Origin: Eledone cirrhosa
Lineage: Eukaryota
Assembly (NCBI GenBank): GCA_964016885.1
Contig: OZ024743.1
Location: 264,554,001-264,618,000, forward strand
DNA length: 64,000 nucleotides
Direction of reading: 5' to 3'
Every line of letters starts with the position of its first letter. Position 1 is the stretch's first letter. Made by a program: the position numbers and the translations under genes. Below the pieces are notes generated by a model that did not search any database, was not told the DNA's origin, and saw only the letters and a list, made by a program, of their open reading frames with translations. Positions 16,420 to 48,745 of this stretch are shown piece by piece.

Positions 16420-17340
16420 GAAATAATGAAACGAAATTTCATTTCTCACTCTTAGTACGGCTGTTACTTAAATATAAGTATGTATACGTACATACATATA
16501 TGTATACAGACGTATAGTAGTATGTATATATATACATACATGCACACACATATATATATGTACGTATGGATTCACCGAACATTTATTATAATGCTCGGTG
16601 TGTTTGTAAACAAACATCCCGAATTAAGCCGTGCAGTGTTTAGCAACCATCGTTGCGCTTTTGTTCAACACTGACAAAAGAACGATATACTAGTTTCAAG
16701 CTTATAAGCTATCGTCATAACCGTATACCTTCCTGCCAGATGTTTGAACCGAGCATTATAATAAATGTTCGGTGAATCCATGTATATATACATACTACTG
16801 CACGTCTGTATACATATATGTATGTACGTATACATACTTATATTTAAGTAACAGCCGTAATAAGGGTGAGAAATTAAATTTCGTTTCATGTTTTCAATTT
16901 ATCGTTTTCGGTGCTCCCGGCCGATTAACTCACTCGATATGCAAATTAGGCTGCCCAGCCGTTAATATGCATAAGGGAAATATATACTTTCAGACGTTCA
17001 ATCATCTGGCAGGAAGGTATACGATGCTGACGATAGCTAATAAGCTTGAAACTAGTACATCGTTCCTTTGTCAGTGTTGAACAAAATGGCAACGATGGTT
17101 GCTAAACACTGTACTGCTTAATTCGGGATGTTTGTTTACAAACACACCGAGCACTATAATAAATGTTCGGTGAATCCATACGTACATATATGTATATGTG
17201 TGAATGTATGTATATATATATACATACTACTGTACGTCTGTATAAATATATGTATGTACATATACATACGTATATATATATATATATATATATATATATA
17301 TATATATATATATATATATATATATATATATTATTTAAGT
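16420..17340 (+). mobile_element. Non-coding HHR mini-element with inverted 5' arm and terminal redundancy (period about 400 nt)
   Basis: 16420-16749 is inverted relative to 16750-16890 and 16996-17270; cgagca.tataataaatgttcggtgaatcc occurs at 16750 and 17148; flanked by TA runs. Confidence 0.8.
17021..17063 (+). ncRNA. Minimal type I hammerhead ribozyme (mutated inverted copy at 16682-16724)
   Basis: acgatg CTGACGA t agct aata agct t GAAA ctag TA catcgt; GUA site; palindromic CTAG. Confidence 0.9.
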
Positions 17341-17499
17341 CGTTTGGAAGCCTCGACAATGCAAATGGGTAAATCTCCGGGTAACAAGATCCGGTGTTGG
17401 AGAGAGAGATGTAAGTGGGTGTACGTTGAGATGCGTGGCATATATAAGACGTGTAGAGGAATGAAAGAAAGGGCGTAAAGGATAAAATAAAAATAACAA

Positions 17500-18470
17500 C
17501 ATGAGAGAGAGTTACCTTGGGAGAGATTTAATTGTCCCTATATATTTCGGATTCACATCCATCAACTGGGAATTTTTCCGGAGTGGAGGAAAGGTTACCT
17601 GTCGGAAAGGTGCGAAACGTGTCCTCCGCAGTTCGTTGTTTTGAATATCTGAGGTATTCAGCAGAGCACACTTGCGCGTGAAATGGGGTTGGTCAGGCAG
17701 AGGTCAGCGGCCGAAGTAGTTCTTTCAATCGTGGGAGTGGGGTGGCGCTAGCTGTCAGTCCATTCTCTGCCTGTTTGTTGAATGTTACTCTGTGTGTATG
17801 TGCATGTGTTGTTGTCTCGCTTGAGTGTGTGTGCGTGTGCGTGTGTTGTTGCCTTGTTCCTCTGTATTGGCAGTGTAGTATGTTCGTATGGTGGGATGCT
17901 ACTGTGTGTGTGTGTGTGTGCGTGTGTTGCTGTCTCGCTTGTGTGTGTGTGTGCGTGTGTTGCTGCATCGTTTGTTAATTTAAACCAACCACCTCATTTC
18001 GCTTCTCTCGGATCGGTTGTTTAATTGTGGCCCTAGGCGTTTGATCGAAAGTGCTTCCTTGATACCTAACGTGCAGACGTTTCTTTCTGTCGCTAGAATT
18101 GTGACAATGGGCCTTCCATCTTTGTTTCCGCATTTGGCTATGTGTTTCCGGAAAGAAGAGGCCCTGGTTTTATTGCGTTCCTTCTTCCGGATGTGCAACG
18201 GCCGGATTGTGCAACCTATATAGTATTGGTTGCACTTGTTACATTCTATCTCATACACGACGTATGTGCGTAGGCAACAGTTCGCATGGCGCATCGGACA
18301 GTTTCTGAGGGAGCACGCGTCAGTTGATTTCCCGGGTTTCCTGGAGAGGCATCTTCGCAGGGAGGGGCCCGAATGGGCCAGGTAGATGTCGAGGCCCTCC
18401 CACCGTATAGCCTTGCGGATAGCGTTGGTGGTATTCTCGCCCAGGTGTGGCATTTTAAGTAAGTACTTAT
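17500..18470 (-). mobile_element. 3' fragment of a different Penelope-like clade (GIY-YIG with CxxC), plus 3' UTR
   Basis: ORF 17980-18453: CSLRNCP..CC..VVYEIECNKCNQYYIGCTIRPLHIR..IKEALSI...PQLN. Confidence 0.85.
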
Positions 18471-18562
18471 ATATATATAATAGGAAAAGCGAAGTAGTTT
18501 CAGATGTATATATAATAGGAAAAGCGAAGTAGTTTCAGATGCTCAAGTCCTTTAATAATAAT

Positions 18563-47900: not shown

Positions 47901-48092
47901 AGTACCAGCGACGACGATGAGGTGGAAGAATTCTATCGTCAGCTAGACAAAGTGCTAGCTGTGAAGTCCACTTACACCGTCGCAATGTGAGATTTCAAAG
48001 CAAAGGTCGGACAGGGGCGGCAAGGGAAAGAGTATGTCGGAAGATTCGGCCGGCCTAGGAGAGCGAAATGAGAGAGGAGGGCGTTTTGTAAC
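44957..48092 (-). mobile_element. RTE-clade LINE with inverted 5' segment (47203-48092 on plus)
   Basis: Minus: RT QPREQAGFR, YKKAFDSVE, GVKQGDTISPKLF, FADD, RWAGHV and endonuclease C-terminus to 47202. Plus: 5' UTR and endonuclease N-terminus (CTYNCRSL, YAPTS, DFKAKVG, ERNERG). Confidence 0.93.
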
Positions 48093-48094
48093 CA

Positions 48095-48745
48095 TATATA
48101 TATATATATATATATATATGAATGTATATATAGTATAATTTGCAATACACTGTATGCTTAATAAAAAGCATTTTGAAGACCTTATTCTATTGTTTTAGAG
48201 TAGTGACAGACTCACTTACTTTAATTTCAGCAAACAGGGGGAGATAAGGCCGACAAGGCCTTGTTTCTGCATTTATTGATACTTATCAAAGTGAGTCTGT
48301 CACTACTCTAAAACAATAGCATAAGGTCTTCAAAATGCTTTTTATTAAGCATACAGTGTATTGCAAAATACACTATATATACATTCATATATATATAGCT
48401 ATTTCAGAGCAACAATTCTAATTTTTAATTTCTGCTTGACCGGCAACCGCTCTGTATAATCAGTTCCTGATTATTTACTAGAATTCTATAAGAACCAAAA
48501 CATCCAGGTTTTTCAGCAAACGGGAGGAGTAGTTGGCTTTGATAAGCATCAATAAATGCAGAAACAAGGCCTTGTCAGCCTTATCTCCCCCTGTTTGCTG
48601 AAATTAAAGTAAGTGAGTCTGTCACTACTCTAAAACAATAGCATAAGGTCTTCAAAATGCTTTTTATTAAGCATACAGTGTATTGCAAAATACACTATAT
48701 ATACATTCATATATATATAACTATTTCAGAGCAACAATTCTAATA
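48095..48745 (+). mobile_element. Retrozyme-like mini-element: inverted arm plus about 1.4 copies of a 322-nt monomer
   Basis: gtgagtctgtcac..gcaacaattctaat at 48291 and 48613; 48110-48291 is the reverse complement of 48537-48720; TA flanks. Confidence 0.85.
48535..48580 (+). ncRNA. Type I hammerhead with compensated U3-A8 core (mirror copy 48248-48291)
   Basis: ggct TTGATAA gcat caataa atgc a GAAA caaggccttg TC agcc; GUC site; 10-nt palindromic stem III. Confidence 0.85.

Follow-up and report, generated by a model that had tools for sequence, protein, structure and literature searches.

Seven inserts, E1 to E7, lie in the window (the whole 64,000-nucleotide stretch of DNA analysed), a region of dense (TA)n arrays and retroelements that include decayed Penelope-like element (PLE) ORFs. 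We propose that all seven are, very probably, head-to-head insertions with PLE anatomy, in which E3, E5 and E6 are truncated ends of coding PLEs and E1, E2, E4 and E7 are non-coding hammerhead (HHR) repeats that a PLE reverse transcriptase-endonuclease probably copies in trans. We observe directly the shared anatomy, the ORF linkage of E3, E5 and E6, and the closed, ORF-less tandem monomers of E1, E2, E4 and E7; the seven are not one single ORF-less class. Trans-mobilisation of the four non-coding families (F1, F2, F4 and F7) by PLEs is likely, a reading drawn from their anatomy because no autonomous relative of these families was found. The inserts and the features nested in or beside them are:

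16420..17270, E1 (family F1): non-coding 431-nt HHR monomer; inverted arm with tail at 16420-16749 (minus strand), then 1.2 monomers (plus) and a right end without tail; intact HHR core at 17027 (plus).
18480..20381, E2 (family F2): non-coding monomer of ~1,310-1,350 nt; inverted arm 18505-18944 (HHR 18631, minus), full monomer on plus (HHR 20184), tail 20312-20381.
22275..22580, older sister of E3: pLTR on the minus strand with HHR at 22463 and an inverted tail; 84% identity, same autonomous lineage.
23760..24335, E3: two pLTR copies of an autonomous 4,423-bp PLE arranged as a palindrome; HHRs at 23958 (minus) and 24082 (plus); tail 24271-24335; ORF start codon at 24255.
24477..26008, E4 (family F4): non-coding monomer of ~2,370 nt, truncated at its 5' end and lying on plus (HHR 25898); the ~140-nt tail belongs to a short inverted arm, 24630-24777, with HHR 24724 (minus).
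39083..42610, E5: 5'-truncated Hydra-type PLE on minus; ORF end 42227-42120, then a long 3' UTR; HHR-like U4C core at ~39171; short plus-strand arm 42230-42477 with core at 42389 and tail to ~42610.
39222..40849 (plus): later insertion that splits the E5 left arm, starting TC and ending CTAG after a small hairpin, between A and T; features by which we take it to be Helitron-like.
42651..44675, E6: plus-strand PLE, 5'-truncated, whose linker is CX4CxxC; ORF end 43115-43207, then the 3' UTR; inverted arm 42651-43115; HHR-like core (U3-A8/A13C) at 44497; tail ~44640-44675.
48095..48745, E7 (family F7): non-coding monomer of 321 nt; after the inverted arm (48109-48291) come 1.4 monomers (plus) and a ~25-nt tail; U3-A8 HHRs at 48289 (minus) and 48539 (plus).

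Masked self-BLAST recovered inverted arms where the first-pass annotation had placed them, measuring ~260-330 bp in E1, 440 in E2, 250 in E3, 149 in E4, 460 in E6 and 183 in E7, and ~250 bp in E5, one of whose arms is split by the 1.6-kb insert. The elements are unrelated to each other in sequence apart from low-complexity matches, TA runs adjoin all seven, and the polarity claimed for them, left arm minus and right arm plus, is borne out. The same annotation took inverted arms and shared polarity as the hallmark of a class, which they are not: both belong to published PLE insertion anatomy, and the autonomous elements here have both.

An inverted 5'-truncated copy and a one-sided tail are present in all seven elements, and the pattern recurs at other loci of the 3.0-Gb genome. 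Both outer ends were seen head-to-head in 105 of 225 loci examined, a few of which are two views of one insertion; the tail lies on exactly one outer end in 100 of the 105 (neither in 3, both in 2), and 116 of the 225 showed no inverted end within 1.5 kb. Where the tail side was scored, at 64 loci, it was the long arm in 33 and the short arm in 31, side counts that are biased by the inclusion of the tail in the F2, F6 and F7 queries. Among 120 loci picked by pattern, neighbours on opposite strands occurred in 32 cases, and every one of the 32 was divergent. Arm lengths span ~50-800 bp within families and tails ~25-140 nt. TA-alternating flanks border F3-type ends with a tail in 25 of 29 cases and those without one in 25 of 30, and two non-TA sites carry target duplications of 11 and 13 bp.

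Comparison of the two arms bears on how they were made. The minor allele at two F3 sites, scored across 29 loci, was present in both arms each time it occurred (19 of 19; 3 of 32 F3 loci, mis-paired with neighbouring sister copies, were dropped from this count), and the main F3 centre types are found again in each of the three haplotypes and with the tail on either side, which together argues that the arms are built anew from one template at each insertion. Concordance is weaker in the older families: variants were in both arms against one arm in 12 versus 21 cases in F1 (6.7/31.6 expected if independent), 5 versus 15 in F7 (2.7/19.6) and 12 versus 5 in F2 (4.5/19.9). Private-variant counts of F2, F4 and F6 look alignment-inflated and were left out. 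Head-to-head joints were mixed-family in 7 cases and same-family in 249, one mixed joint linking F7 to the E3 lineage with TA at both outer sides; two separate cDNAs can thus be joined. Joints between different PLE-class families were noted at L418:2246-4281, L043:323-1849, L014, L164, L188, L262 and L427.

We propose that a PLE enzyme would nick both strands at an AT-rich site and that two cDNAs would begin, by target-primed reverse transcription, at two start sites that lie one on each side of the tail, in most cases with one RNA as the template for both. The cDNAs would each end early, and their 5' ends would be joined via short overlaps or filler. Start sites on either side of the tail would leave one arm with the tail and the other without, and because the HHR lies close upstream of them, near the 3' end, each arm would receive a copy of it in outward orientation. 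In F1 and F7 a tandem or circular RNA was likely the template, which would account for arms that exceed one monomer. For an anole PLE, Frangieh 2024 (PMC11167929) describes two start sites, cleavage and extension on both strands in vitro, and a predicted dimer.

The main rival accepts the same elements and derives the inverted arm by snap-back, or self-priming, of one cDNA, with an endonuclease later trimming the tail from either end. We regard this as possible, if rather improbable. Self-priming was proposed by Arkhipova 2013 (PMC3846280) and the tail ascribed to endonuclease resolution by Craig 2021 (PMC8557442), as far as the accessible parts of both papers go, and F3 arms of the same haplotype and hairpin-like centres would fit. 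However, snap-back without trimming cannot yield the short-arm tails found at 31 of the 64 loci, and it leaves the mixed-family joints unexplained. A broader picture may be drawn, which we put forward tentatively and with a little less than even confidence: the genome would hold tens of thousands of retrozyme insertions with a Penelope enzyme fingerprint that names their mobiliser; the one-tail rule, same-template arms and rare mixed-family joints would be the work of a PLE dimer that primes two cDNAs on a single RNA, at the start sites on either side of the tail; and the ~25-140-nt tail region would be a cis signal letting any HHR circle hitch-hike.

For E3, E5 and E6, an RT and C-terminal GIY-YIG ORF is joined to the same 3' end, as in EN+ PLEs. 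E3 and the pLTR of a tandem 4,423-bp PLE with an open 1,329-codon ORF are 99.7% identical, and E3 retains the first 39 codons of that frame (97% identity), the parent's tail encoding the protein start. An E3-type pattern search of the genome returned 3,902 matches, including the tandem 4,423-bp ORF-bearing unit. The parent protein matches the RT of the E6 parent by BLASTP (6.5e-11); it gave 0 Pfam matches of its own and no match in a PDB search, and a sister of the parent (91% identical) carries a Pfam GIY-YIG domain (3.5e-4). Tandem, near-identical and apparently intact 4,423-bp copies occur at L368:520-9624, with a long Asn-rich insert that resembles the N-rich inserts of rotifer Penelopes. 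The idea that E3 represents a fixed-length non-autonomous palindrome family was rejected, the uniform start of 40 of 40 scored copies having stemmed from the query; 13 of 17 E3-type single copies reach >70 nt further upstream than the supposed fixed start. A hot spot is left, in that 10 of 21 head-to-head pairs of the family join ≤55 nt from the supposed start point. It may mark a transcript start, and it bears a presumably YY1-like motif.

The interior of E5 is the minus-strand 3' UTR and the end of a Hydra-type endonuclease ORF, with the last 36 codons of the GIY-YIG ORF kept at 92% identity, and 29 of the 30 best endonuclease loci run on into it. Its parent gave no RT or GIY-YIG Pfam match, and we assign it to EN+ PLEs by its motifs and its homology with ORFs in the window. 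The CxCX5C linker, DKT motif and (TA)n target, with motifs read in L199, L200 and L209, as well as the HHR, agree with the Hydra clade as the accessible text of PMC8557442 describes it, from which the Hydra-type elements here differ in being very abundant and in their 1.6-kb 3' UTR. Hydra-type endonucleases gave 61,329 first-look candidates genome-wide, in a clade described as few families. At its start E6 keeps the final 31 codons of a GIY-YIG domain (84% identity); longer copies carry RT, and the E6 parent matches Pfam GIY-YIG (1.9e-7) and RVT_1 (8.7e-8). The CX4CxxC linker is present in both the E3 and E6 parents and is common to the Neptune and Nematis clades.

These codons mean that the label "ORF-less", given at first to all seven, applies to E1, E2, E4 and E7 but not to E3, E5 and E6. 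Interiors matching Penelope ORFs had been named by the first-pass annotation as evidence against its own reading, and such matches were found in E3, E5 and E6, so that reading falls by its own standard for these truncated autonomous PLEs; in E1, E2, E4 and E7 there are none, and the description as non-autonomous and retrozyme-like survives for these four of the seven. That they are passengers of the Penelope elements in this window is unproven: no sequence link of F1, F2, F4 and F7 to the window PLEs was found.

In F1, F2, F4 and F7 the tail continues into a non-coding body and back to the pLTR, closing a monomer. The longest ATG ORF in these monomers is 28-95 aa, with no RT/EN ORF and no PLE-protein tblastn match at E<0.1. 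Thirty pattern-picked loci of each family showed no colinear upstream ORF within 1.5 kb, and no parent appeared among the fetched loci and 20 sister Hydra-type loci. One candidate parent was rejected as a separate neighbouring element. Exact-pattern matches genome-wide number 28,315 for F1 (control 1), 5,134 for F4, 1,274 for F2 and 168 for F7, counts that vary with pattern length and include sister subfamilies. Tandem arrays reach 7 units in F1 and 5 in F2, and same-strand neighbours at monomer spacing occur among the first 100 listed F1 and F2 matches. F1 and F7 are non-coding and tandemly repeated, each unit with a single type I HHR; their GC is 0.34 and 0.36, and as circles they fold better than 40 shuffled sequences (circular MFE z -3.5 and -6.7). 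Against a retrozyme range of ~170-400 nt and GC <45%, the 321-nt unit lies inside and the 431-nt unit slightly above, while F2 (~1,310 nt) and F4 (~2,370 nt) fall outside the size range. By these sequence features E1 and E7 would fit non-LTR retrozymes. A tandem 310-nt family at L289:4820-5960 is 83% like F7 over the tail region and has a different hammerhead, a possible ribozyme swap.

Could all seven instead be truncated autonomous PLEs, the parents of F1, F2, F4 and F7 having been overlooked? We consider this unlikely. E3 did prove to have a parent after a biased first search suggested otherwise, UTRs here extend up to 1.6 kb, beyond the 1.5-kb flanks examined, and F4 has sister subfamilies with other bodies; yet the four tails run directly into non-coding body and back to the pLTR, and the same-strand spacing among the first 100 listed F1 and F2 matches is that of the monomer. 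Still less probable is that the non-coding arrays are pLTR-derived satellites grown locally by unequal crossover with no RNA movement, one option offered in the accessible text of bioRxiv 10.64898/2026.07.22.740005: arrays do exist, but copies are dispersed, short and 5'-truncated, carry inverted arms and end at two fixed 3' points, and these fixed ends largely refute it. Movement as MITEs by a DNA transposase is effectively refuted, since long terminal inverted repeats and TA flanks are set against arm and total lengths that vary, a tail outside one arm, tandem copies, three families joined to RT/GIY-YIG ORFs, and no fixed length, symmetric termini or fixed TSD, so the initial choice of a Penelope link over MITEs holds.

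Our reading of all seven as PLE-type insertions draws further on their ribozymes. A strict type I HHR descriptor, a search that the first-pass annotation had suggested, gave 11 matches in the window, where 30 dinucleotide-shuffled versions averaged 0.43; E1-E4 and E7 account for 9 of these matches. The type I HHRs lie in the pLTR, with canonical or U3-A8 cores in E1-E4 and E7 and variant cores in E5 and E6. HHRs had been claimed for both arms of every element; strict matches support this in E1-E4 and E7, except that the E1 left-arm core is decayed (C3 to A, ~16718, minus), and the E5 and E6 cores are non-canonical. The E5 core is U4C family-wide (CCGANGA) and recurs with varying stems in sister autonomous families. 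That of E6 combines U3-A8 with A13C (GCAA instead of GAAA), and a sister of its motif with GAAA occurs at other loci and at window position ~21308; because a one-deviation descriptor yields 1-3 chance matches per shuffled window, the E6 call relies on position and homology. The U3-A8 core of the E7 HHRs was described in Schistosoma PLEs in the accessible text of Cervera and de la Pena 2014 (PMC4209133).

With polymorphic columns left out, mismatches in core against flank were 0/300 versus 92/5561 in F1, 0/250 versus 90/6443 in F7, 0/300 versus 29/5640 in F4 and 3/299 versus 165/6391 in F2. Cores are thus better kept than flanks in these four families but show no difference in E5 and E6. In DNA contigs from three runs, with a few contigs from two other organisms left out, N7 was the only position within the HHR core among those varying in ≥10%. 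Local MFE folding recovered stems I and II in E1-E3 and not the full fold in E4-E7, and an Rfam search of the window returned 0 hammerhead families among 91 matches. Self-cleavage by these HHRs is predicted. The HHR cut site shows no excess of arm starts (0/52 in F1, 2/70 in F7, 0/46 in F4), so the genome bears no trace of HHR cleavage, and the idea that the cut site sets the arm starts was rejected.

The inverted copy, tail, TA bias, opposite-strand HHR pairs and non-autonomous PLEs are already in print; what we add is the structural tie of retrozyme-type repeats to PLE insertion and a countable one-tail rule. As the accessible text of PMC8557442, PMC3846280 and PMC11167929 describes them, EN+ PLE insertions share partial tandems, an inverted 5' copy, a one-end tail, TA preference, an HHR in the pLTR and an ORF starting in the pLTR or tail (E3 here). 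Tails there are 30-40 nt, against ~25-140 here, and unlike those elements four families here have no ORF and the one-tail rule is counted on 105 loci. The minimal hammerheads in the accessible text of PMC4209133 include, as here, pairs of HHRs on opposite strands, 100-700 bp from each other, which that paper ascribes to truncated PLEs; the U3-A8 core and palindromic helix III are common to both, the U-U at the stem II base in F1, F2 and F4 differs, and the U4C (E5) and A13C (E6) cores are not met in that text and may be in print elsewhere. Chlamys non-autonomous elements such as MRC1, in the relevant part of PMC8557442, are likewise non-coding PLE passengers with pLTRs and head-to-tail copies; they share 3' sequence with autonomous partners, whereas no partner was found here, and mostly have no canonical HHRs, unlike these families.

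Metazoan non-LTR retrozymes, in the accessible text of PMC7229834, PMC7761336 and bioRxiv 10.64898/2026.07.22.740005, likewise consist of non-coding monomers in tandem, poor in GC and with a single type I HHR apiece, and F1 and F7 come near their size range and fold well as circles. In contrast to those retrozymes, the families here are mostly 1-3 units with inverted arms and PLE tails, are known from DNA alone, and include monomers of 1.3 and 2.4 kb (F2 and F4). A 2020 review (de la Pena) describes, in its accessible part, metazoan retrozymes as having no motif that reveals the mobiliser, and the bioRxiv text argues for PLEs as mobilisers via co-occurrence and pLTR phylogeny, leaving the mechanism open. 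Our literature search, in which subscription papers and Repbase were thinly covered, found no description of tail-bearing, inverted-arm retrozyme insertions, and the words "ribozyme" and "retrozyme" are absent from the accessible main text of an Octopus vulgaris repeat paper (PMC13282606). One genome here holds autonomous PLEs and non-coding HHR repeats with common fixed 3' ends, tails and inverted arms, and the apparently intact 4.4-kb PLE and the 321/431-nt passengers are ready substrates for the published in vitro assay. These families resemble MITEs or miRNA hairpins and need curation as PLE-class repeats.

Other PLEs crowd the window. An autonomous Hydra-type family at 32784-36100 (minus), with 38391-38504, 7450-7520, 20873-21217 and 44752-44933, is present in at least 5 pieces and has a U4A hammerhead core and inverted-arm and tail anatomy like that of E1-E7. 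Three decayed Hydra-type ORF sets lie at 10380-12310 (plus), 774-2663 and 8848-10351, with a canonical HHR at 12178, and the GIY-YIG end of another PLE family (17340-18534, minus; 87% to L133) adjoins E1 and E2. More short HHR-bearing fragments of other families sit at TA runs (21278-21368, 20405-20462 and 36330-36400). The flanks of loci L001-L257 contain about 20 or more additional HHR families, which indicates that (TA)n sites are repeatedly re-targeted. Non-LTR retrotransposon ORFs and decayed copies occupy 58551-61583 (plus), 3716-6600 (minus) and 45000-48090, with RVT_1 and a 1,010-aa frame with zf-RVT. A dispersed SINE-like repeat recurs at 26571-26771, 36845-37033, 43522-43655 and 28991-29181, one copy lying within E6 and one forming a palindrome around (CTA)n/(TAG)n. 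Direct repeats of 109 bp (98%) at 22827-22935 and 23541-23649 flank a 600-bp purine-rich interior between TA arrays.
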